NCBI GenBank assembly: GCA_024137785.1
Contig: JAHRHZ010000055.1
Span: 591,940 to 655,939 of the forward strand
DNA from: Ginglymostoma cirratum
Lineage: Eukaryota
Direction of reading: 5' to 3'
DNA length: 64,000 bases
The translations under genes and the position numbers were made by a program. Shown here one piece after another: positions 1-59,416 of this stretch (position 1 is its first letter; the number at the start of each line of letters is the position of its first letter). Under the pieces are notes generated by a model that saw only the letters and a list, made by a program, of their open reading frames with translations, did not search any database and had not been told where the DNA came from.

Positions 1-1489
1 GGCACCACTACTCGGGAACGGACTGAGTTTGAAATAAGATCAAAAAGCAAGCATTGCAAGAAATCTGTAAGTGTATTGATTGAACAGCAGGACGGCAGAG
101 GACCACAAGGCAAAAAGTCACTAGCACATGGGTGAGTATTTCTGCTGGACAGTCTTTAAAGTAAAAATTGGTCTATCGTTTAGAATAAGTCATGCTTAAG
201 TTATGAGAAATACCTTAAGATCCCTGGTATATTTTGAGGCTTCTTTAAATTTCAGGAAATAAATGTCAAAGCAGAAATTTAGGGGTAAGTCCTGGCAGGG
301 CAGCTAGGCCAGGTGAAATGCACTTTCTGTGCAATGTGGGAAATCAGGGACACTCCCAGTGTCCAGGGTCATTACATGTTCAGGAAGGGTCTCCAGCTGC
401 AACTATCTGAAATCCACATTTTGGATCTGGAACAACGGCTGGCGTCACTATGAAACATCCACAAAGCTGAGATATTTGTGGCTAGAATGTACTGTAAGGT
501 AGTCACGCTGTAGGTAAAGAGTGCACAGGCATAAAGGGAATAGGTAGCTTCCAGACAGAGTTAAAACATGAAGCAGATAGACCCAATGGTTTCCTGCAAT
601 CCCTCCATCTCTGGCAGATCTTCCATTTTAGAGCATAGAATCCCTACAGTGTAGAAACAGGCCACTCAGCCCAACAAGACCACAATGACCCTCCAAAGTA
701 CATTCTACACAGACCCATCCCCCTACACTTTCCCTGTAACCCCACATTTCCCATGGCAAACAAGCCTAGCCTGCACACCATGGGGCAATTTAGCATGGCT
801 AATTCACCCTAACCTGCACATCTTTGGACTGTGGGAGGAAACCGGAGCACCCGGTGGAAACCCACACAGACACGGGGAGAACGTGCAAACTCCACATAGA
901 CAGTCGCCCAAGGGTGGAATTGAGCCTGGACCCCTGGTGCTGTGAGGCAGCAGTGCTAACTGCTGAGCCACCATGCCACCACTGGGGGAGATGATTTCTA
1001 TGGGAAAGATAGCAAGAGCCCTTCCATGACACTACAAGTGGATTGGCAGCATGGGTGGGAAAGGGAGAAAAAGGAGTGGCAGAGCAATATTGACAGTGAT
1101 TCAACCATAAATGGATCTTTAGATATTTCTGCAGGTGTAACACCAAGATGATAGTCTGCATCACTGCTACCAGGGTCAGAATGTCTCTGAGATGCTGCTG
1201 GATATTCAGAAAGGGGTTAGTGAACAGCCAGAGGTCATTGTTCATGTCAGATCCAACAACACAGCTAAAATGATGGGTGAGGTCCTGCAATTAGAATATG
1301 GGAAGATAGGAAATAAATTAAAAAGCAGGTCATCAAAGGTTGTAATCTCAATATTACTTTCAGTGTCATGTGCAGGTGAGATCAGGAATAGGAGAATAGA
1401 CTAGATCAATGTGTTGATGGAGACATTATACACGAGAGAGAGATTTAGACTCTTGAGGCAATGGGACAGACGCTGAGGAAGATGGAACC
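1..1489 (+). mobile_element. CR1 LINE 5'UTR/ORF1 (zinc-finger/zipper plus esterase), degenerate, interrupted by a SINE
   Basis: ~295-450 reads AGQLGQVKCTFCAMWEIRD...RKGLQLQL..HILDLEQRLASL; 1192-1404 is esterase-like (QPEVIVHVRSNN..KLKSRSSKVVIS), typical of CR1 ORF1. Confidence 0.8.
632..982 (-). mobile_element. HE1-like V-SINE (tRNA head, CR1-type tail)
   Basis: Minus strand ggcatggtggctcagcagttagcactgctgcctcacag head, V-domain gtggagtttgcacgttctccccgtgtctg, tail cactgtagggattctatg. Confidence 0.9.
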
Positions 1490-1648
1490 TGTTTTCAGTG
1501 TATAACACTGCAATGTGTTCAGCACAAGAACATCATTGCAGTGAAGCTTAATATACCCGCCTACAGGGCATATATCTCATGGTAAAGGTCAAATGACTAT
1601 GGCAGACTAGGACAAATGTTTGCACATGATTGCATTTCAGACCAAACA
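1490..1648 (-). repeat. Putative 3' LTR of the Gypsy element
   Basis: TG...CA ends, preceded on the minus strand by purine tract aaatagggga; 1490-1517 matches 7390-7417 at 18/28, next to PBS-like TGGGATCAGTGAGTG. Confidence 0.55.
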
Positions 1649-2812
1649 TCCCCTATTTGATACAAAAGAAAAGAAAATTAAAATTTATACTTTCAGGTAC
1701 CCAAATTACCATTATATATTCAACTGTTCTCATGCCAGAGCAGTTCATCATTTCCATCAGTCTCTGCAAATGCATTGCACACACAATCCTTAAATCATGC
1801 AGGTAGGTTAATAGTGTGTGTACGCGTTGTTGGTGACTATTCTTCTGGCTGATGTTGTTTCAACAGGGAATGTTGTTCCTGTGTCATTTGATTTTGCTGA
1901 GTTATCTGTTTTTGTTCTGGTTCTATTGTTGGATTGCTGTGGAACTCTGGGTCTGATGGTTAATGTGCATTCTGTGTAGGTGGTACATTTACCTCTTTCT
2001 GCTCAGCTACCTGTAGTTGAGGAATACTACTCCGTAGTTGGGTGTATGTGCCCATAGTTGTGATGGTATATCTAGTTGTTCACTTCCACCACATACAATT
2101 GAGGTGACAATTGATTCACCAAGGTCCCAAGTTGCCAGCTAGGCTTACCTTTATGAAGATAGTTGAATGTTTGTACCTTGACTGGCTCTCCAATCCTCAA
2201 CTCTGGCAATAGTTTAGTAGGCTTTGTCAAAATGAAATTTGCCTTTTTGCAGTTTCATCTTGATTTTTGTTTAATCCCATCTTTTACTACTTCTGCCTTC
2301 AGTAGCTTTTCTTTGCTGTTGGAAATGTAGTTTGCATGAGGTTAGTCTTCATACTGGTTTACTTTCCATGCCCTGAACGGGTGTGTTTCTCCAGTCAAGG
2401 GTTGCCTTATCTAAATCTGAGTTGGATTTGGACGATTCCTTTGGTGATTTTCACCATCGCCTCAGCCTTTCAATTTAACTGGGGTTAGTGTGGAAATGAT
2501 GAGCAGTGTAGAATTTATCAGGAAACAATTGAATTCTTTATTTATGAACTGAGGGCCATTGTTGCTTATGACAACGTCGGGATTGCCATATGCTGAAATG
2601 TGCTTTTAGGCATTTGCAATAGCAGTAGTCATTGAAGTCAATTGGTCTACATCCCAGCAGTCAGAGTAGTAGTCCAATGTGACTAGATAATCAGTTCCTA
2701 AAAGTGTTAAAAGATCTACTCCCAGCTTCATCTATGGTCTCTCTGAGATGTCATGCATCATCAATGGCTCTCAACTTTTCTAAGTTTGGTACTCATTACA
2801 AGCACTGTATTG

Positions 2813-3075
2813 AATCATAGAATCAGACCATTTGACTCATCAAGTCCACACTGACCCTTCAAGTAGCATCCCAACCAGACCCACCCGGCTGCCCTATCCC
2901 TCTAACCCTCCATTTACCATGGCTAATCCACCTAACCTACACATCTTTGGACTGTGGGAGGAAACTGGACCATCCAGAGGAAACACACGCATACATAGGG
3001 AGAATGTGAAAGGTGGAATCGAACCTACGTCTCTGGCACTGAGAGGCAGCAGTGGTGCCAGTACAGCACAACAGG
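2813..3075 (-). mobile_element. HE1-like V-SINE inserted in Gypsy pol
   Basis: Similar to 632-982 (catggctaatccacctaacctacacatctttggactgtgggaggaaac). Confidence 0.85.
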
Positions 3076-4214
3076 CTTAATTGAATTATTTGATGGCTTC
3101 CCAGGATGTGCTTTAGTGTCACTCCCCTCAACTCTTTCAGAATAATGACTCTATTTCCTTTGAATGACATGCAATCTGGGCCTAATTTGGTTTGGGATCA
3201 TGTCAGCATGGGCTGGTTGGACCGAAGGGTTTATTTCCATTCTGTATCACTCTATGACTATGTTTATATGCCCAATATTCTCTTAAACCAAACAGATGTG
3301 TCCTTGATGCTCACTTGATACTTTACTTGATTTAAACAAAGCACTATCTTCTTCATTCAGCGTCTCTGCTGAATGGATAACTTCCACAGCAAGATGACCT
3401 CTGCCTTGTGTTGAATCTGGAAGACTTCACATGCTGTTGTACATCCTTTTAAACTGGAGTGCTCCCCTTAACAGAGTGCCACAATATGCTTCTGCTTCCC
3501 TGTTTATATATCTCATCCAGATGATATCACTGTAACAAGAGTTTCTTTGCAGATGCTTTGGAGCAGATAGTTTAAGGAGAATGCTTTGAAGTGGCTTGTG
3601 GTTGGACTTGACTGTCACTTTGTCTCTTCTGAGAAGGTATTGATGAAAATGTGCACAAGCAAAGACAATGACTCAGCACTCTTTCCTGTACAGGGCATAA
3701 CATCCTTCTGTTTGTATTACCACCCTGCATACAAATGCAACAGGTTGTCCTTGCTGCATTAGTGTTGCTCCAAGTCCTGTCTCTCTGGTGTCAAATTGCA
3801 GGGTGACTTCATCATTTATTGCACTGTATTTCAGCACTGGTGTTGCTGTCACTAGTTGCTGGATGTTCACAAATCCTGATTCTTGTTCTGTGTCCCAAAA
3901 TCGCCTCCCATCCTTGGCTATGAGTTGGCAAAATGGTCCACACCATGACAACAGCTTGAACAAGAATGTTGCCAAATGGTTGATTAATCCAACAAATTGT
4001 TGCACTGCTCACACTTTTCGTGATCCAGGCGAAGACCTTTTGCAGTCAGTACACAGCCATTGTTCTTGACCTTGGGTAATGTTAATTATATTCTTCCTCA
4101 ACTTCAAATTCACCTGGCAAGCTATGTCAAGCGCTCACATTGTCTATGATCAAAAATGGCTGCTTCCATTGTATCTGAACCTCCATAAACTAGCAGATAA
4201 TCCATGATGACTTT

Positions 4215-15925: not shown

Positions 15926-16770
15926 GGGAGGTGATGCCCCAGCGGTATTATTGTTAGACTATTTATCCAGGGAACCTAGCTAGTGTGCTGGGGATCCAGG
16001 TTCAAATCCTGCCATAGCAGATGGTAGAACTGGATTTCAATTTTTAAAAATCTGGAATTAAGAATCTACTGATGCCAATTGTTGGGAAAAAAATTCCCAT
16101 CTGGGAAAAAAAAATCCCATCTGCGTTCACTAATGCCTTTCAGGAAAGGAAATCTGCCACACTTACCCGGTCTAGCCTATATGTGACTCCAGACCCACAG
16201 CAATGTGGTTAACTCTCAGATGCCCTCTGAAGCGCCCTAGTAAGCCATTCAGGTGCATCCATCACTACAAAGTCTCAAAGAAATGAAACCAGACAGACCA
16301 TCTGGCATCGAACTTGGGACTGGAGAAGATAACGGCAGGAATAACCCTGTCAACCTTGTAAATGTCCTCCTTACTAACATGTGGGGGCTAGTGCCAAAAT
16401 TGGGAAAGCTATCTCACAGACTAGTCAAACAACAGAATAATGTAGTCTTGTTCAAGAATCATGCCATACGGGCAATGTCCCAGACACCACCATGACCATC
16501 CCTGGGTATGTCCTGTCCCACCAGGAGGACAGACGCAGCAGAGGTGGCAGCACACTGGGATACAGTCAGGAGGGAATTGCTCTGGGAGTTGTCAACATTG
16601 ACTCTGGATCCCATGAAGCCTCGTGGCTTCAGGTTAAACATGGGCAAGGAAACCTCCTGCTGATTACCACATACTGTCCTCCTTCGGCTGATGAATCAGT
16701 ACCCCTCCGTGCTGAACAACAATTAGATGAAGCACTGAGCATGAACGCTGAGCAAACAGTCCAGACATTG
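15926..16770 (+). mobile_element. 5' end of a LINE with tRNA-like head followed directly by AP-endonuclease
   Basis: A-box-like and B-box (ggttcaaatcc, 15999-16009) head, then VLLTNMWGLVPKLGKLSHRL...IPGYVLSHQEDR.SRGG...LLITTYCPPS. Confidence 0.82.
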
Positions 16771-18012: not shown

Positions 18013-19649
18013 AGCTATAGTTTGTCTGGCTTTTCTGCAGGGTTGCTGATTCACCCATTCTCACTAGCTGCCTTTAGGTATATCGGAAGGATTTATAGGC
18101 TGACAATCAGCCTGCTCAGCCACATGCTGAGCACATTTTCCAGACCCAATAGGTCCTGGTATAAGGCCTGAAACATGGAGCTTCTGGTCAACAGATAGGG
18201 ATGCTATCACAGAACCACAAGATCTCCTCAACCAACATCAACAAAGCAGATTATCTGCTTCAGAAACAGAAATTGTTGGGGAAATGCAGTAGGCCTAGCA
18301 GCATCTGTGGAGAGAAAGCAGAGTTAACATTTCAGGTCAGTAAACATTCTGTTTTTTGTTTCAGATTCCCAGCATCTGCACTTCTTTGGTTTGTTTCCGT
18401 TTGTCTGGTTATCTGTTCCATTGCTCTTTCTTGGAGCTGAGCGTGCATGAATTAGATGATGCATTTCTTACAAGATGGCAATGACTAAACTTTCAAAAGA
18501 CCATAAGAAATAGGAACAGGAGTAGGCCATTAGGCCCCTTGAGCCTGCTTTGCCATTCAATAGAATCATGGCTGACCTGACGCTCCTCATGTCCACTTTT
18601 GTGCCCTTTGTCTGGTACTGTATTTACAATAAAACACTTCGGAACATCTCAAAGTCCTGAAGAAGCTCTACAGAAAATGCAAGTTCCTTCTGTGTTTTTC
18701 ATACTTAGGGTGTGATTGATTTCCTACAGCCTGATGCTTTAGTGTAACCTCGACTTTATTTAGAATGAAGCCATTTTGTATTTAAATTCTGCGACAGCTT
18801 GAAGAGCTTAACACATTATATTTCCACTGGCTGAACGCCAAGAGATAAACAAAAAGATCAGAGCTTGTAATGGCGAAGAAAAGTGAGTGAGATGGAAAAC
18901 ATTAGCTTTAAATGCCCCAGCAATTATAACTCTAATGCAATCAGAACTTTCTTGTAAACAAAAGGGAAATAAAGAAAATGTACAAGGAGGTGGAATGGAG
19001 ACGTTAATAAGGATAACGAAGGTAGAAGTTAATAAGATTCTAGAGGTTAATGGAGGGGTGAATGTTCTGTCAACTTTGCTGATCCCAAGCTCAAAGAGAC
19101 TGTAAATTGAAATCACCTATCAGCAGAGATTAAATTTAAGGCCAGGATTTATTGCTGTGTGTGCACCTAATACTGGGGCATGTGACTTTTGGGACAATTA
19201 TCTTCCACGCCAGTGAGAAAGCTGGGCAGATCCAGCACCAATTAGCTGGTCATGTGCAGCTTAGAGAACTACCTGTCCAATCAGGAGCCTGGCCACTACA
19301 GTCCCACCTCCCCTGAGGCCTCCAGCCAATCAGAGGGCAGCCTCATGGAGCTGGAAGCCCAGGCTCTGCAACCATGAAGAGTTGCCTTGGTGAGAGGCTA
19401 AGTGTTTTGCTGCAATGGGAGAGTGGAGGGACAGATGTGTCAGGGCATTTGGAGACATGAGCAATAGGGTGGCTGTCTAAATCCCTGTTTTGATTTTCTC
19501 CAGACTGGGGCAAATGGATACTCTTCCCATCCTTTAGGCAGCCCTCCCTGTTTGTCTATTAGGAATTTACCACGTTCCTCATGTGCTGGGAAGCCAGTTA
19601 AATTGGGCCGAGGCAGTCTGAGGCTCTTAATTGGCTGTTATATTTTGTT

Positions 19650-20210
19650 TGATTTACTCATGGGACATGGATATCGATGGCTAGCCAGCAATTTATTGCC
19701 TGTCCTTAGCTGCCCTTCAGAAAGTGGTGGGGAGCTGCCTTCCTGAACTGCTGCAGTTCACCTGAGGGTTGACCCACAATGCCATTAGGGATGGAATTCC
19801 AGGATTTTGACCCAGCGACTGTGAAGTAATGCTGATGTCATCTCCAAGTCACTCACCATCCTGACTTGGAAATATCTTTAACGTGGTGGTGTTCCCATAT
19901 GTCGTCTGCCTCCATCCTTCGAGATGGAAGTGGTTGTGGGTTTGGATGTTGCTGTCTGAGGATCTTTGGTGAATTTCTGTTGTGCATCTTGTAGATAGTA
20001 CATAATTCTGCTACAGAGCATCAGTGGGAGAGGAAATGAATGCTTGTGGGTGTGGCGCCAATCAAGCAGCTACTTTGTCCTGGATGGTGTCAAGCTTCTT
20101 GAGAGTTGTTGGAACTGCACTCATCCAGGCAAGTGGGGAGTATTCCATCACACTCCTAAGCTTTGCCTTGTAGATGTTGGATAGGCTCTGGGAAGTCAGG
20201 AGGTGAGATA
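19650..20210 (-). mobile_element. LINE ORF C-terminus and 3' tail (same tail as the bipartite SINE)
   Basis: HLLTSQSLSNIYKAKLRSVMEYSPLAWMSAVPTTLKKLDTIQDK; tail gaagggcagctaaggacaggcaataaattgctggctagcc. Confidence 0.85.
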
Positions 20211-22309: not shown

Positions 22310-24520
22310 CTAATCCAAATTTCTCATGCTAGGCTCATTGCCTTGAATGTTATGACACTCCAAGTGCTCACCAAGTATGTTTTTAAAAAGGTGCGAGCTT
22401 TCCTGCTCAACTACCCTCCCAAGCAGTACATTCCAGACTCCCATCACCCACTGGGTGAAAAAAATCTAAACATCCTGCCTTCCATGTTAAAATTGTGCCC
22501 CTGTTATTGACCCTTCAACTGAGGGGAATATCTGCTTCCTATCCACCCTGTCCATGCCCCTCATAATCTTACACACCTCAATCAGGTGCCCCTCAGCCTT
22601 CTCTGCTCTGAAGAAAACAACCCAACAGCCTCTCTTTAACGCTGAAACGCTCCATTGCAGGCTACATCCTGGTGAAGAGATAGTAGGAACTGCAGATGCT
22701 GGAGAATCTGAGATAACAAGGTGTGGAGCTGGATGAACACAGCAGGCCAAGCAGCATCAGAGGAGCAGGAAAGCTGACATTTCTGAATCATCAGCCTTCC
22801 CGCTCCTCTGATGCTGCTAGGCCTGCTGTGTTCATCCAGCTCTACACCTTGTTATCTAACATCCTGGTGAATCTCCTTTGCACCCCCTCCAGGCGTAAAC
22901 ACATCCCTCTTATAATGTGGTGACCAGATCTGCACACGGTCCTCCAGCTGTGGCATAACCAAAGTTCTGTATAGCTGCAACATAATCTTCCTGCTCTTAT
23001 AACCAAAGACCCAACTGGTGAAGGCAAGTGTCCCATATGCCTTCTTAACTACCCTATTATCCTGTCCTGCCACCTTCAGGATCTGTGGATAAGAACCCCA
23101 AGATCCCTCTGAGCTTTCTAGTGTCCTACCATTCATTGAGTGCTCCCTTGTCTTGTTCCTTCTTCCAAAGTACATCACCTCACATTTATCAGGGTTAAAT
23201 TCCATCTGCCACAGATCTGTGCATCTGACCAATCTGTCTATACCCTCCTGTAACCTGATATATTCCTCCTCCCTGCTGACCACCTGGCCAATGTTTGTCA
23301 TCCACAAATGTACCTACTATCCCCAATGTTCTCCTCTACATCATTTATGAATATCACAAACAGTACAGGACCCTGCACTGATCCCTGTGGTACACTACTG
23401 CGTCTCGGGCTCCAATCATTCAGCCTTCTACCACTACCCTCTGTCTGCTGTCTCACAGCTAATTTTGAATACGACTTGCCAAGTTACCCTTGATCCCACG
23501 AGCTTTTGCCTTCTTTATCAGTTTCCTATTTGGGACCTTGTCAAAGGCTTTGCTGAAATCCATAAAAACTACATCAATTGCCCTACTCTCATCCAAACTA
23601 TAACTCATCTCCTTAAAATATTTCACAACGTTTGTTAGGCATGACCTCCCTCTAACCAAGCCATGCTGACTATCCCTGACCAAACCTTGCCTACCTCAAT
23701 GGAGATTAGTTTTCTTCTTTATTATTTTCTCCAATAGTTTCCCTACCACTGATCTTAGACTCACTGATCTATAGTTCCCTGGTCTATCTCTACCACCCTT
23801 CTGTTAAAGTGGAACCACATTGTCTGCCCTCCAGTACTTTGGCACATCCCCTGTAAAGATGAAAGTGAATTGAAAAAGTGGGTCAGTGCCACTGTAACTT
23901 TCTCCCTTGTCTCTCCCACAGCATCCTGGGATACAACTCATCAGGACCTGGGGATTTGTCCAGTTTTAAATCTGTTGAAACCTCCAATATCTTCTCATTT
24001 CTAATAACAATCTGATGAAGAACTTCACAGTGTGTCTTCTTGAATTCTGTACTTGCATGGTCCTTCTCCCAAATAAAGACAGATGTGAAATACTCATTTT
24101 ACGCTGTAACAATGTCCTCCAGCTTCATGCATGGATTTCCCCCTTTGTCCCTAATAGGGTCTACCCTTTCCCTGGTTATTCTCTTCCTTTTTACATACTT
24201 GCAGAATATTTTAGGATTCTCCCTAACTTTGCCCGGCAATGTGTTCTCACACCGTCTCTTTGCTCTCCTTATTGCTTTTTTGAATTACCCACTGCGTGTT
24301 CCATACTCCTCTAGGGCCTCTGTTGTTTCGCTCCCTGAATATGCTGAGACATCCTTGGTTCTCTGGGCTTGTAGTTCCTACATTTCATCCTAAAGGGAAC
24401 ATGTTGGGCCTGTTATCCCCCAGTACCTTTTTGAACACTTCCCACTGTTCAACTGTAGATTTACCCTTGAGTAGCTGTTCCCAGTCTACTATGGCCAGAT
24501 CCTGCCTTAGTTTAAATGAT
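22310..24520 (-). mobile_element. CR1 LINE ORF2 (RT), degenerate
   Basis: SQHGLVRGRSCLTN..IDVVFMDFSKAFDKVP; WQMEFNPDKCEVMYFG; LYRTLVMPQLE..VQIWSPHYKRD. Confidence 0.93.
22677..22858. mobile_element. Penelope inverted-pLTR insert inside CR1
   Basis: Inverted arms gataacaaggtgtggagctggatgaacacagcaggcc; 13-bp TSD ACATCCTGGTGAA at 22664-22676 and 22859-22871. Confidence 0.88.
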
Positions 24521-31074: not shown

Positions 31075-31812
31075 GGATCCGTTAGCTCAATTGGCTGGAT
31101 GGCTGGTTTGCAATGGATCAATACCAATAGCATAGGTTCAATTCCCATACCCACTGAGGTTACCAATGATGACTATTCCTCTCAACTTTGCCCCTCACCT
31201 GGAGCAGATACTTATGCCCCTCAGGTCAAACACATCACCAGTCTGAGATAAAAGGTACTACAGATGCTGGAGAATCCGAGATAACAAGCATGGGGCTGGG
31301 TGAACACAGCAGGTCAAGCAGCATCATAGGAGCAGGAAAACTTGCACAAGCTTCAAAATCTCCCCTCCCCCAACCGCATCCCAAAACCAGCCCAGCTCAT
31401 CTCCACCTCCCTAACCTGTTTTTCCTCTCACCTCAAGCCACACCCCCATCTCCTATCTACGAACATCATCCCGCCCCCTTGACGTGTCCATCCTCCCTGG
31501 ACTGACCTATCTCCTCCCTACCCCACTACCTACACTCACCTTTACTGGCTCCATCCCCGCCTCTTCGACTTGTCTGCCTCCTCTCCTCTATGCATCCTCT
31601 ATCCACCTCCCCCTCTCTCCCTATTTATTTCAGAACCCTCTTCCCCTCCCCCATTTCTGATGAAGGGTTTAGGCCCGAAACGTCAAGTTTTCCGGCTCCT
31701 ATGATGCTGCTTGACCTGCTGTGTTCATCCAGCCCCATGCTTGTTATATCACCAGTCTGCTCCTGTTATGAGTGAGCAGCCCTATGGTCTGGTAAGTCTA
31801 TGACATGTTTAC
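31075..31812 (+). mobile_element. tRNA-headed SINE (family also at 38495-38690 minus and 59545-59735 plus), split by a Penelope insert
   Basis: tagctcaattgg...ggttcaattccc boxes; shared body cctcaggtcaaac..accagtc and tail gcagccctatggtctgg. Confidence 0.7.
31246..31747 (+). mobile_element. Penelope 3' fragment with inverted pLTR; hammerhead at 31654-31687
   Basis: C/T-rich spacer, then CTGATGAagggtttaggcccGAAAcgTC; 12-bp TSD ATCACCAGTCTG at 31234-31245 and 31748-31759. Confidence 0.88.
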
Positions 31813-33429: not shown

Positions 33430-33760
33430 AAAATTCATTGACGGAATGAAGGCATCACTAGCTAGGCAGCATTTATTGCCCCTCCCTAATTGCCCAGAGG
33501 GCAGTTCAGAGTCAAACACATTGCTGTGGCTCTGGAGTCACATGTAGGTCAGGATGGCAGTTCCCTTCCCTAAAGGACATTAGTGAACCAGATGGTTTTT
33601 TTTCCTGACAATCAACAATGGATTCATGGTCATTATTAGATTCTTAATTCCAGATATTTTACTGAACTCAAATTCCACCACCATCTGGGTCCCCAGAACA
33701 TTATCTAGGTCTCTGGATTAACAGTCCAGCAATAATACCACTAGGTCATCGATTCCTCAC
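33430..33760 (-). mobile_element. tRNA-headed bipartite SINE, near full length
   Basis: Head matches 15926-16228; tail gggcaattagggaggggcaataaatgctgcc matches LINE 3' ends at 58120-58190. Confidence 0.88.
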
Positions 33761-40084: not shown

Positions 40085-40370
40085 TGTGGAGCTGGAGGAA
40101 CACAGCAGGCCAGGCAGCAACAGAGGAGCAGGAAAGCCGACGGTTCAGGTCAGGACCCTTCTTCAGAAATGGGGGAGGGGAAAGGGGGCTCTGAAATAAA
40201 TAGGGAGAGGGGTAGGGCTGGGGAAGGTATCTCTCTATTTATTTCAGAGCCCCCTTCCCCCTCCCCCATTTCTGAAAAAGGGTCCCAACCCGAAACGTCA
40301 GCTTTCCTACTCCTGCACATATCCACACTGTGTTATCTCAGACTCCAGCATCGGCAGTTCATACTATCTC
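40085..40370. mobile_element. Penelope inverted-pLTR insert
   Basis: Inverted arms cagaaatgggggaggggaagggggctctgaaataaatag; 13-bp TSD TTTCCTGCATCTG at 40072-40084 and 40371-40383. Confidence 0.88.
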
Positions 40371-40912: not shown

Positions 40913-41009
40913 TATTCCAGGTGTGGCCTCACCAATGCTTTGTATAACTGCAGCAAGACATGCCAATTCTTCCTCTTGAATGCTCTTCACTGCCTGCTTC
41001 ACTGTTTTA

Positions 41010-41320
41010 ATTATTCATGGGATGAGGGTGTCACTGGCTAGGCCAACATTCATTACCCATTCTAATTGCCCATAGGGCAGTCAAGAGTCAACCACATTGC
41101 TGTGGGTCTGGAGTCACATTTAGGCTGGACCAGGTAAGGACAGCAAATGTCCTTTAGGTAAGGAAACTGTAAACCAGAGTGTTTTTTAATCACAATTGAC
41201 AGTGGATTCATGGTCATGTTTAGACACTTAATTCCAGACTTTTTTTTCCCGTTATTGAATTCAAATTCCACCATCTGCCGTGGTGGGATTTGAACACAGG
41301 TCCCCAGAATATCACCCGAG
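41010..41320 (-). mobile_element. Bipartite SINE
   Basis: Colinear with 33430-33760. Confidence 0.85.
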
Positions 41321-44550: not shown

Positions 44551-44994
44551 ATTTTAAAAATAAGCAGCATAATACTATGCTTACATCTTCCCCATTACAC
44601 TTGTAAATAAATTTGATCTACGATTCTAGCCCAGAAGCAGAAGTCCTGCAGCATTTTATTTCAATCATTAGTACGAGTCGGTGCGTTTTGGAGTTGGAGG
44701 TGGGATGTGGGATGTGGGATGCAATATGAACTACTGTACTGTTAGTCATCAGAAGCTTGCTTCTATTGCGAATAGCGACTTCATTAATCACAATTTCATC
44801 AGAACGGGATCAGGAACTGGAGACAAAGAAGATTTCAGAAGTGAATAACTGGACAGTTTTGCAGCTGTATTACTCTGTTAGTCCAGTTTTCAGTTAATAA
44901 CCAAGATGCACTTCACAGATGCTGAATAATGCAGCCCACAGTAGGGGGATCAAAACCTATAAATGGAGTACTAGCATCATCTATCCCTCATTAT

Positions 44995-45678
44995 TCTTTT
45001 GTGGGATGTGGGCATCACTGGCGAGGCCAGTATGTATTGCTCATCCCCAACTGCGGACGAGCTGAAAGACCTGTTCGCTAGACTGTTTCAGAGGGCAGTT
45101 AAGAGTCACTGAAATTGCTGTGGGTCTGGAGTCACATATAGGCCAGACCGGGTAAGGATGAAAGATTTCCTTCCCTAAAGGACACTGGTGAATTTAATGA
45201 GTGTTTGTTTAAAATTATTGACGACTTAGGTCTAGCTTTAGTATTATTCAAACACAGGACGTTGGTGGTCAGCATTTATTGTCCCTCCCTAATTGTCCAG
45301 AGAGCAACTAAGAGTCAACCACATTGCTAAAGGTCTGGAGTCACATGTAAGCCAGGCCAGACAAGGATGACAAATTTTTTTTCCTAAAAGAACATGAATG
45401 GATTTTTTACAACGAAATGACAGTGATAACCCTTAGACTAGCTTTCAATCCAGAATTTATTGAATTCAGATTTCTCCATCTGCCAAGGTGGGTTTCGAGC
45501 CCATGCCAATGGTCTGGGGCCTGGATTACTAATTATTACCATTACACCACCTAATCTTCCAGATTGACTAACTGAATTTGAATTCTGCCAGCTACTGTGG
45601 TGGGATTTGAACCCATGGCCAACAGCGCATTAACCTGGACTGCTAGACCAGCGATAACATCATGCACCACCACCTCCT
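44995..45678 (-). mobile_element. Bipartite SINE nested in another copy of the same family
   Basis: Outer copy 44995-45250 plus 45557-45678; inner copy ~45255-45555. Confidence 0.75.
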
Positions 45679-54212: not shown

Positions 54213-54818
54213 CTAGTAAAATAATAATGAGATTATTAAAAGACTCTCGCAGCGTGCAGCTTGGGTTTATTTCAAACTTGTCTCGAGAAATGATTCACTC
54301 CGCGGGCCGGTTAAAATAATTGAGCAATGCATCGCAGCATACATTTGTAATTTAGGTGTTATAACGTCAGTGGTTTCAAACGCAGAACATCTTCATGAAA
54401 AGGTAGATTAAAAGCAATTGAGACGGACAGGAAAGTCTATGACGACAGTGGGCTGTGACAGCCATGGTGCAGTCACCAAAACTGACAGCTCATTAGTGGA
54501 GAAGGTCCTATTGCTCACTGTCTCTCATTGTTATAACTCTGTTTGTGGTTGGTAACCATTTGAGAAGATTTTCTGAGCAGATCCACTCCTTCTTATTTAA
54601 TGAGCTATAGTTGCCAAGCTACAGTTACCACCCTCCTAGCTTTGCAGCAGACTGCCTGGTCAGTGAACCTAATAGTAGTCGAGGGATACAGGAACTTACT
54701 GTGTGGTGGGAGACACATGAGCCGCAATCAGGTCACTGCACTGTATTCTGAGAGCCCTACCATTTATTTGGGCATGAGGCAATTGTGAACTTCATACAAA
54801 AGCAATGAGCTTTACATT

Positions 54819-55160
54819 GAGATAACAAGGTGTGGGGCTGGATGAACGCAGCAGGCCAAGCAGCATCATAGGAGCAGGAAAGCTTGACGTTTCGGGCCTA
54901 GACCCTTCATCAGAAATGGGGGAGGGGAAGAGGGTTCTGAAATAAATAGGGAGAGAGGGGGAGGCGGATAGAGGATGGATAGAGGAGAGGATAGGTGGAG
55001 AGGAGGCAGACAAGTCGAAGAGGCGGGGATGGAGCCAGTAAAGGTGAGTGTAGGTGGGGGCGGTAGGGAGGAGATAGGTCAGTCCAGGGAGGACGGACAG
55101 GTCAAGGAGGCAGGATGAGGTTAGTAGATAGGAGATGGGGGTGTGGCTTGAGGTGGGAGG
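54819..55160 (-). mobile_element. Penelope pLTR plus spacer; hammerhead at 54883-54916
   Basis: Reverse complement of 31420-31747; CTGATGAagggtctaggcccGAAAcgTC. Confidence 0.88.
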
Positions 55161-55197
55161 ACTACTGAGTGAAATTATCTACAGTGTCATTAGATTA

Positions 55198-57904: not shown

Positions 57905-58190
57905 CACCATCTGGAAGGAAAAGGACAGCAGAAATATGGGAACACCACCACCTGCAATTTCCCTTCAAAATCACTCTCCATCCTGACTTAGAAAAATAAC
58001 AACATTCCCCTCCTGTGTGTCTGGGTCAAAACCCTGCAATTCCCTCCTTAACAATATTGTGAGCCTCCCACAGCACATTGACTGCAGCAGTTCAAGGCGG
58101 CAGCTCACCACCACCTTCTCAAGGGCAACTAGTGACGGGCAATAAATACTGAGCCAGCCAATGACACTCATATCCTGTGAGTTAATAAAG
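57905..58190 (+). mobile_element. LINE 3' end (same family as 19650-20210)
   Basis: gcagttcaaggcggcagctcaccaccaccttctcaagggcaactagtgacgggcaataaa. Confidence 0.85.
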
Positions 58191-58290
58191 CAAAGAACTT
58201 GTTTCCTTGGTGGGGCAGCCCTGCTTTGTATAAACATCAGAAATATGCTCCCAAATGTTTGTAAAGTAGAGCAAAAGAGCAGACAGTACT

Positions 58291-59416
58291 TTGTATGTGG
58301 AACAATCCCTCTTCCAGACCTACACTGGCCCTAAACCCCACCTCTTCCTCCGTTACATTGATGACTGCATCGGCACCGCCTCGTGCTCCCACGAGGAGCT
58401 CGAACAGTTCATCCAATTCACCAACACTTTCCACCCCAACCTGAAGTTCACCTGGACCATCTCCAACACTTCTCTCTCCTTCCTGGACCTCTCTGTCTCC
58501 ATCTCGGGCAACCACCTAGAAACAGATGTCCATTTCAAGCCCACTGACTCCCACAGCTACCTGGAATACACCTCCTCCCACCCACCTTCCTGCAAAAATG
58601 CCATCCCCTATTCCCAATTCCTTCGCCTCCGCCGCATCTGCTCCCAGGATGAGACATTCCAATCCCGCACATCTCAAATGTCCTCATTCTTCAAGGACCG
58701 CAACTTCCCCCCCACAGTGGTCGAGAACGCCCTCGACCGTGTCTCCCGCATTTCCCGGAACACATCCCTCACGCCCCGTCCCCGCAACAATAACCAAAAA
58801 AGAATCCCCCTCGTCCTCACATACCACCCCACCAACCTCCGGATCCAACGCATCATCCTCCGACACTTCCGCCATCTNNNNNNNNNNNNNNNNNNNNNNN
58901 NNNNNNNNNNNNNNNNNNNNNNNNNNNNNNNNNNNNNNNNNNNNNNNNNNNNNNNNNNNNNNNNNNNNNNNNNNNNNNNNNNNNNNNNNNNNNNNNNNNN
59001 NNNNNNNNNNNNNNNNNNNNNNNNNNNNNNNNNNNNNNNNNNNNNNNNNNNNNNNNNNNNNNNNNNNNNNNNNNNNNNNNNNNNNNNNNNNNNNNNNNNN
59101 NNNNNNNNNNNNNNNNNNNNNNNNNNNNNNNNNNNNNNNNNNNNNNNNNNNNNNNNNNNNNNNNNNNNNNNNNNNNNNNNNNNNNNNNNNNNNNNNNNNN
59201 NNNNNNNNNNNNNNNNNNNNNNNNNNNNNNNNNNNNNNNNNNNNNNNNNNNNNNNNNNNNNNNNNNNNNNNNNNNNNCTCTCTCCCTATTTATTTCAGAA
59301 CCCTCTTCCCCTCCCCCATTTCTGATGAAGGGTTTAGGCCCGAAACGTCGAGTTTTCCTGCTCCTATGATGCTGCTTGACCTGCTGTGTTCATCCAGCCC
59401 CATGCTTGTTATCTCG
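58291..59416 (+). mobile_element. Young 5'-truncated Penelope-like element: RT ORF, gap, pLTR with hammerhead (59319-59352)
   Basis: Uninterrupted ORF FLRYIDDCIG...HPNLKFT..LSFLDL..TDVHFKPTDSHSYLEYTSSHP..IPYSQFLRLRRICS; pLTR beyond the gap. Confidence 0.93.

Follow-up and report, generated by a model that had tools for sequence, protein, structure and literature searches.

How a LINE that opens with a Pol III-type promoter might be transcribed and translated is the question raised by the locus that begins at position 15926, forward strand, in the 64,000-nucleotide stretch of Ginglymostoma cirratum DNA analysed here (the window). The working division treats LINEs as mRNAs of Pol II and leaves to Pol III only the short, non-coding RNAs of SINEs. 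The original prediction proposed that this locus belongs to an autonomous, single-ORF LINE family whose 5' region is tRNA-derived. SINE-like 5' ends are described for some Ingi/Vingi elements, and the locus had been compared with these. Our analysis suggests instead a Zenon LINE with a tRNA-like head and one AUG-less frame, likely transcribed by Pol III and equipped with a candidate mimic start. Judged from the sequences, we regard this reading as a whole as fairly probable. The features of the locus, numbered also by the family majority sequence described below, are as follows.

15926-16009, forward strand: tRNA-like, Pol III-type head (family nt 2-84); copies agree from 15926 on and not upstream, which marks the true 5' end of the family
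15935-15945, forward strand: A box, decayed in the window copy (family TGGCCTAGTGG), retained in published shark and ray consensuses
15999-16009, forward strand: B box GGTTCAAATCC, a good match in the window copy
16010-16229, forward strand: conserved body that the short SINE also contains, as far as family nt 293
16041-16045, forward strand: TTTTT in the window copy, at an A-run of the family; absent from the family majority, and would stop Pol III here
16227-16252, forward strand: predicted hairpin (family nt 291-316) with a 7-nt anticodon-like loop at 16237-16243 (family CTAGCAA, decayed here)
16264-16266, forward strand: family Ala codon GCT (nt 328), decayed here; in the ORF frame, complementary to the hairpin loop, and the putative coding start
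16264-16743, forward strand: basic N-terminal stretch and first part of an AP-type endonuclease, with stops and frameshifts; ends at family nt 807
16283-16285, forward strand: conserved AUG (family nt 347), out of the ORF frame; opens a 35-codon overlapping frame in the family

The window locus is a dead, 3'-cut Zenon LINE copy that retains the 5' 807 nt of a ~3.29-kb family. Positions 15926-16743 align with nt 2-807 of the family majority at 83% identity across 820 alignment columns, and unrelated sequence and a masked stretch follow beyond 16743, where the copy stops at family nt 807. This alignment moves the end of the copy from 16770, as previously given, to 16743. The head and body are indeed common to the SINE in the window, with 15926-16229 matching window repeats at 33750-33495 (E 1e-27), 41307-41071 and 62439-62344, but the boundary proposed at 16250 does not hold, as homology to the short SINE stops at 16229 and that to a longer form at 16254. 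The head does run without a tail into the N-terminus of an AP endonuclease, in a frame that is broken by frameshifts and stops. The endonuclease motif LLTNMWGL is present as described, but its M is a change in the window copy, the family having LLTNIW. The endonuclease piece in the window receives no Pfam score, and the same region in other copies scores with PF14529/PF03372. At family nt 394 (window 16330), 12 of 84 copies, including the one in the window, carry a non-CpG C-to-T change that creates a stop in the N-terminal frame and may reflect a hot spot or a non-autonomous subfamily.

The head-endonuclease junction (16150-16480) is not unique to this locus: all 40 scored candidates match it, of 4213 in the 4.36-Gb genome. 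Thirty-nine loci were fetched with 6.5 kb of downstream sequence, and a column majority was built from 22 near-full copies. The sequence common to the 39 loci begins at the head and stops ~3.2 kb further on. The resulting majority comprises 3294 nt, to which the copies are 87-94% identical, and carries one 977-codon endonuclease-RT frame (nt 295-3225). On actual family copies, PF14529, PF03372 and PF00078 all score, and full copies have A-rich ends (poly-A tails). Because only unrelated flanks are found upstream of the head, this is a LINE family lacking ORF1, as proposed. Likewise, the colinear recurrence of the junction bears out the proposal of an autonomous single-ORF family with an A/B-box 5' head. 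The junction is also bridged by contigs from three organisms; all sequence runs examined, those recorded or taken as RNA among them, are contigs, which carry no start, strand or polymerase information, and one run with a small share (X20) was left out as evidence of habitat or expression.

The 5' end of the family was also approached from its coding region. A query made up of the endonuclease alone retrieved 29 other copies, of which 19 extend to nt 10 or less; the remainder begin inside the head (7), begin inside the ORF (2) or are interrupted (1), with no alternative common 5' end among these 29 endonuclease-selected copies. Of the top 30 PF14529 loci, 29 belong to the Zenon family, and 17 extend to nt 7 or less (3 overlap the endonuclease-query set). 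The sharp common 5' end fits a fixed internal start site. Matches of TSD type, of at least 5 nt, were present for 8 of 12 LINE copies and 15 of 21 SINE copies, against a chance level of 52%, which does not place TSDs above chance. As a separate observation, ~60-65% of endonuclease-bearing copies (L074-L098, L255-L284) are complete to the first 10 nt. Two further pieces of the Zenon LINE lie in the window.

19643-20210, reverse strand: LINE 3' end with tail (family nt 2720-3290), in the opposite orientation and probably a separate insertion
57907-58175, forward strand: LINE 3' end (family nt 3004-3270), a further copy of the Zenon LINE

A 34-nt perfect local inversion lies at 19842-19875, inside the first of these two pieces.

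Published Zenon consensuses were located via two short motifs from the window, and their first 400 nt were compared by eye. Over this stretch, RhiTyp_Zenon-1 (3293 nt) is nearly letter-for-letter the same as the 3294-nt family majority. By these first 400 nt and by length, the family is assigned to elasmobranch Zenon (CR1-Zenon). From five elasmobranchs, Stuart et al. 2026 (PMC13343379) describe Zenon elements that lack ORF1 and end in poly-A tails, and the accessible parts of that paper concern the same family, given the near-identical first 400 nt, the length, the missing ORF1 and the poly-A tail. In contrast, its accessible passages do not include the head, the purge of T-runs, the AUG-less start or the linked SINEs, all of which are seen here, and the terms 'tRNA' and 'Pol III' have no occurrences in the available text and supplement. 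An A/B-box head opens seven of the seven elasmobranch consensuses, from sharks and a ray (RhiTyp_Zenon-1, CarCar_Zenon-1, ScyCan_Zenon-1, SquAca_Zenon-1 to -3 and HypSab_Zenon-1; available first 400 nt, by eye). The three hagfish and coelacanth Zenon consensuses, viewed in the same way over the same available stretch, lack such a head and contain T-runs. Ingi/Vingi elements, as far as the available sources describe them, are likewise compact single-ORF APE-type LINEs, but they form a different clade; membership in Ingi/Vingi was rejected, and the earlier comparison with them was misplaced, since the identity with published Zenon consensuses speaks, indirectly, for Zenon.

The best long protein relatives are 42-46% identical over 900-1050 aa and lie mostly on 3-4 kb contigs, compared with 26-28% identity for co-resident CR1s; named Zenon proteins are absent from the protein matches. 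Viral contigs yielded no relative. In the available part of a whale shark preprint, CR1-Zenon-like LINEs are named as a class only (10.1101/443036). No account of a Pol III-headed autonomous LINE was found in the accessible parts of the literature covered, which includes PMC5786205, PMC5499810, PMC4824008, PMC7245038, PMC11481361, PMC4494074, PMC3747384, PMC13708176 and PMC10886601 and has Repbase, Dfam and subscription papers outside its scope. The locus thus represents a real family that is a member of the described elasmobranch Zenon, with an architecture that is absent from the literature covered.

Neither ARAGORN nor Rfam identifies a tRNA in the window, and the same is true of 9 family or SINE loci and of 41 relatives; the label 'tRNA-like' therefore refers to the A and B boxes of the head. 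The B-box pattern was found in 27 of 39 LINE heads, and in the published consensuses, as far as available and by eye, both boxes persist from sharks to the ray as the intervening spacer changes. The heads of the LINE and of the short SINE differ at 25 of 293 columns and fall into separate clusters (2 label changes compared with 21.7 in shuffled data, with rough supports). This separation indicates that the LINE head was inherited, not repeatedly acquired from SINEs of the type in the window, although the tree of heads is unrooted and poorly supported and gives no direction between a SINE derived from the LINE and a head derived from a SINE. No A-B box pair occurs upstream of the ORF in 43 metagenome relatives, which are mostly distant LINEs.

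Other structures were considered for the element and rejected. A Hammerhead_3 match in one family locus (L082; 16 bits against a cut-off of 48.5, E 1.3) was dismissed, as the CUGAnGA core is present in only 4 of 39 LINE heads and in 0 of 28 SINE heads. Rfam ribozymes were likewise absent from 18 metagenome relatives, again mostly distant LINEs. Pairing of the element end to end is not special, given that 65 of 139 and 19 of 139 internal windows of the majority pair equally well.

Runs of four or more T residues (T4) stop vertebrate Pol III, and the original prediction had suggested a search for internal TTTT terminators. That search finds none in the family majority, and it finds TTTTT at 16041-16045 in the window copy. 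The sense strand of the majority has no T4, compared with 13 A4, 11 C4 and 8 G4, and only four TTT in 3.3 kb. A null that retains the protein and draws codons from base use predicts 20.6 +/- 3.6 TTT runs and 4.3 T4 in the ORF, which has 2 (0 of 2000 draws) and 0 (P 0.009), respectively. Phe is encoded by TTT once and by TTC 16 times (Fisher P 0.013). Among trinucleotides, TTT shows the strongest depletion, and one 5-nt window has at least four T residues, against 23 expected. The lack of T4 is also significant against a mononucleotide shuffle (P 0.010). It loses significance when the null retains the dinucleotide use (P 0.146) or the codon use (P 0.172) of the element itself, because such a null already contains the T deficit.

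Other elements do not share this pattern. Three CR1 majorities from the same genome, treated alike, have 12, 15 and 5 T4 and no TTT deficit. The three closest relatives for which DNA was available have 2-4 T4 and 13-16 T3 in 1.3-2.0 kb, and 40 metagenome ORFs of at least 750 aa (80 loci) all have 5-41 T4, these being T-richer, mostly distant and at most 35% identical. In raw family copies, T4 occurs at 0.45 per kb in the sense strand, at 4.5 in the antisense strand and at 5.5 in the flanks. The seven elasmobranch Zenon consensuses all lack TTTT over their available first 400 nt, by eye. Eleven of 39 LINE heads do contain T4, and the window copy has its T5 directly behind the head; in inspected copies these runs lie at the A-run behind the B box, and we read them as decay after insertion. 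The family thus has the makings of a type 2 Pol III unit (A and B boxes and no sense-strand T4), whereas the window copy, with T5 at 16041, does not. A piece at 22852-23313 on the reverse strand, the 3' part of what we take, from its motifs, to be a canonical CR1-like LINE, served as a T-run control.

Oligo-T is given as the Pol III terminator in the accessible part of PMC4494074, and a sense strand poor in T-runs is what read-through by Pol III would need. The Zenon family is probably transcribed by Pol III from its tRNA-like head. The A and B boxes would be bound by TFIIIC, and Pol III would read through 3.3 kb because terminators have been purged. The template-encoded A-tail would be copied, and transcription would stop at the next flanking T-run, in the manner of a SINE. 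If this holds, a vertebrate LINE that combines a Pol III head with a 2.9-kb ORF devoid of terminators would constitute a natural Pol III mRNA in sharks and rays, and Zenon would make the reading distance of Pol III and the translation of uncapped RNA testable.

RNA made by Pol III carries no cap and is difficult to translate, which favours the first alternative. According to this, the head was captured from a SINE or a tRNA and travels with the element as a passenger, Pol II makes the coding RNA, from an internal promoter or by host read-through, and the poverty in T results from other selection, for instance against signals for splicing, polyadenylation or U-rich decay, or from codon bias. 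T-runs in the heads of some copies agree with it, as does the rule, stated in the available part of Kojima 2024, that non-LTR elements, LINEs among them, are Pol II transcripts and that Pol III elements stay short. However, neither co-resident CR1s nor the closest relatives without a head are short of T-runs, the deficit in the Zenon family is strand-specific, and the A and B boxes are kept from sharks to the ray despite the changing spacer. We consider transcription of the coding RNA by Pol II rather unlikely.

A division of labour, in which Pol III makes the template RNA and the protein is translated from transcripts that the same copies yield through Pol II or host read-through, would explain both the head and the purge of T-runs with no need to translate an uncapped RNA. 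The protein, moreover, evidently acts in trans on SINE RNA, with which the LINE has only the tail in common. This scheme nevertheless leaves the missing AUG and the conserved hairpin and codon at the start of the ORF unexplained, and we judge it improbable.

Transcription by Pol III, the preferred reading, brings the start of translation into question. The first in-frame Met is codon 171, past the first endonuclease motif at codon 46. By eye, in the available sequences of five species, the frame continues upstream without a stop as far as the Ala codon at nt 328, and four of the five carry a triplet indel. Just ahead of this codon is the predicted hairpin, whose loop CUAGCAA is shaped like an anticodon loop and contains UAGC, complementary to GCUA at nt 328 (4 base pairs). 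The hairpin and GCUA are conserved across the same five species, as available and by eye, with a variable spacer between them and one stem change that still pairs. From these features, the RNA is likely translated from a non-AUG start at or adjoining the Ala codon at nt 328.

Whether the loop takes part is less certain. Pairing of CUAGCAA with the GCU codon as an anticodon-codon mimic, which would provide a candidate IRES-like start, is a tentative proposal that draws on predicted pairing. Outside the family, 5' DNA was available for a single close relative, the metagenome sequence L132. Its stem of 11 bp is unrelated to that of the family and bears the loop CUAGCGA, which is followed 31 nt on by an in-frame GCUA and then by a homologous basic N-terminus. 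In three relatives represented by protein only (P0016, P0042 and P0043), G-[AV]-D-[NDS]-P lies 9-10 codons before the Val that opens the basic N-terminus, which, read from amino acids only, would suit a GAC loop that pairs with a Val codon. Compared with shuffles, the hairpin of L132 shows no added stability (z -0.5). A pseudoknot descriptor, made post hoc after the sequence had been viewed, is matched by 0.35-1.45% of shuffles and by 1 of 27 other loci, the latter a chance-like match.

The arrangement resembles pseudoknot I of the dicistrovirus IGR IRES, in which, as set out in the available part of PMC3517527, a loop resembling an anticodon pairs with a codon-like element of the same RNA and so fixes a reading frame that does not begin with AUG; three pairs are enough for weak activity there. 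The shark pseudoknot differs from it in being only predicted, in having 4 pairs and in sitting in a retrotransposon. Such a loop-codon pseudoknot would permit cap-independent initiation. Should the mimic start hold, the mechanism of dicistrovirus IRESs would exist in a cellular retrotransposon clade, with a bearing on the origin of dicistrovirus-type IRESs and on tools for cap-independent expression. In its most extended form, the proposal would make autonomous Zenon a Pol III-made, uncapped 3.3-kb mRNA whose pseudoknot start, free of initiator tRNA and inherited from Zenon relatives, was a pre-adaptation for a swap to a tRNA promoter, with SINEs arising by loss of the ORF; this chain, built up from sequence comparison, is possible though on balance unlikely.

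The AUG at nt 347 offers a different start. It is the only conserved AUG ahead of the endonuclease, present in 71 of 84 copies and in all five species, and the endonuclease frame would be reached from it either through a -1 shift or through reinitiation downstream of the 35-codon mini-ORF. The change shared by 12 of 84 copies fits such a start, being silent in the AUG frame and a stop in the endonuclease frame. Non-CpG differences between species (n=10, by eye) point the other way, with 5 silent in the endonuclease frame versus 2 in the AUG frame, and the basic HRPRHRKRQ stretch is largely conserved. A frame that stays open back to the Ala codon, with its triplet indel in four of five species, also counts against the AUG, and no canonical slippery heptamer was seen by eye. 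Because the five-species comparison favours the endonuclease frame, the -1 shift from this AUG was demoted, and a start there is quite improbable. Chance nesting of a SINE ahead of a 5'-truncated LINE, conceivable given how plentiful SINEs and LINEs are in the window, is refuted by the same junction in dozens of loci and in other organisms, by LINE-specific head variants and by the headed published consensuses, and is practically excluded.

The SINE of the window consists of family nt 1-293 joined to nt 3219 through the end and is the LINE minus almost exactly its ORF. At ~365 nt, non-coding, with A and B boxes in its majority and a tail shared with the LINE, this short form has the hallmarks of a tRNA-derived SINE. 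Two copies are found in the window.

33433-33751, reverse strand: short SINE (family nt 8-293 and 3219-3281)
41005-41314, reverse strand: short SINE, second copy (family nt 56-293 and 3219-3285)

A second form, in which ~nt 315-319 is joined to 3213-3226, was present in 8 of 20 loci of a further search. Both forms comprise the head of the LINE and its last 70-75 nt, and their two junctions fall at the two ends of the predicted hairpin (nt 291-316). The junction of the short form was also seen as a loose end in sequence runs of three other organisms. Mobilisation of the SINEs in trans would depend on the tail that they share with the LINE, and, if the proposal is true, loss of the ORF would be a direct route from LINE to SINE. 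The reverse strand at 44992-45503 holds a tandem pair of head and body pieces, of which the downstream piece reaches nt 305 and is followed by an odd spacer before the tail. Assignment of the body to the Meta-, UCON3- or Deu-domain SINEs was rejected, as no likeness to their consensuses was seen by eye in the available part of the supplement of Kojima 2020 (PMC7245038).

Comparable partnerships are known. The lepidopteran Zenon and Persaeus (Wang et al. 2019, PMC6740152), according to the accessible part of the paper, likewise pair a single-ORF 3.3-kb LINE of the CR1 group with a short partner made of its 5' and 3' ends. For Persaeus, however, the authors state in that part that there is no tRNA homology and no Pol III promoter, whereas the shared 5' end in the shark has A and B boxes. 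Bov-tA, and SINE2-1_ACar with Vingi-2_ACar, likewise have a tRNA head, a middle shared with a LINE and a LINE tail in the available parts of the descriptions (Kojima 2018, PMC5786205; Kojima 2015, PMC4494074). In those cases the head is on the non-autonomous element only, whereas here the autonomous LINE carries it.

Several observations concern other elements. The ORFs of a number of distant LINE relatives (L305-L315, L328, L135, L137, L139, L142, L144 and L162) start with a hydrophobic stretch and a motif ending in NPGP, which we take to be 2A-like. Where such relatives come from a collection of prokaryote genomes, their DNA is presumably that of a host, binned with its symbiont. Within the window, other repeats reach 6-10 copies. 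A fragment of an RT-associated RNase H (PF17919, E 4e-11) at 3673-4008, reverse strand, is likely the remnant of an LTR retroelement. At 58270-59325, forward strand, a long, partly masked open frame gives no Pfam match over its unmasked 202 aa; we assume that it belongs to a Penelope-type RT element. Pieces related to this frame, 93-98% alike, lie at 31288-31750 and 54785-55161. Short repeats are paired head to head at 22694-22874 and 40124-40314, forming inverted repeats of 84-85 nt with gaps of 13-21 nt.
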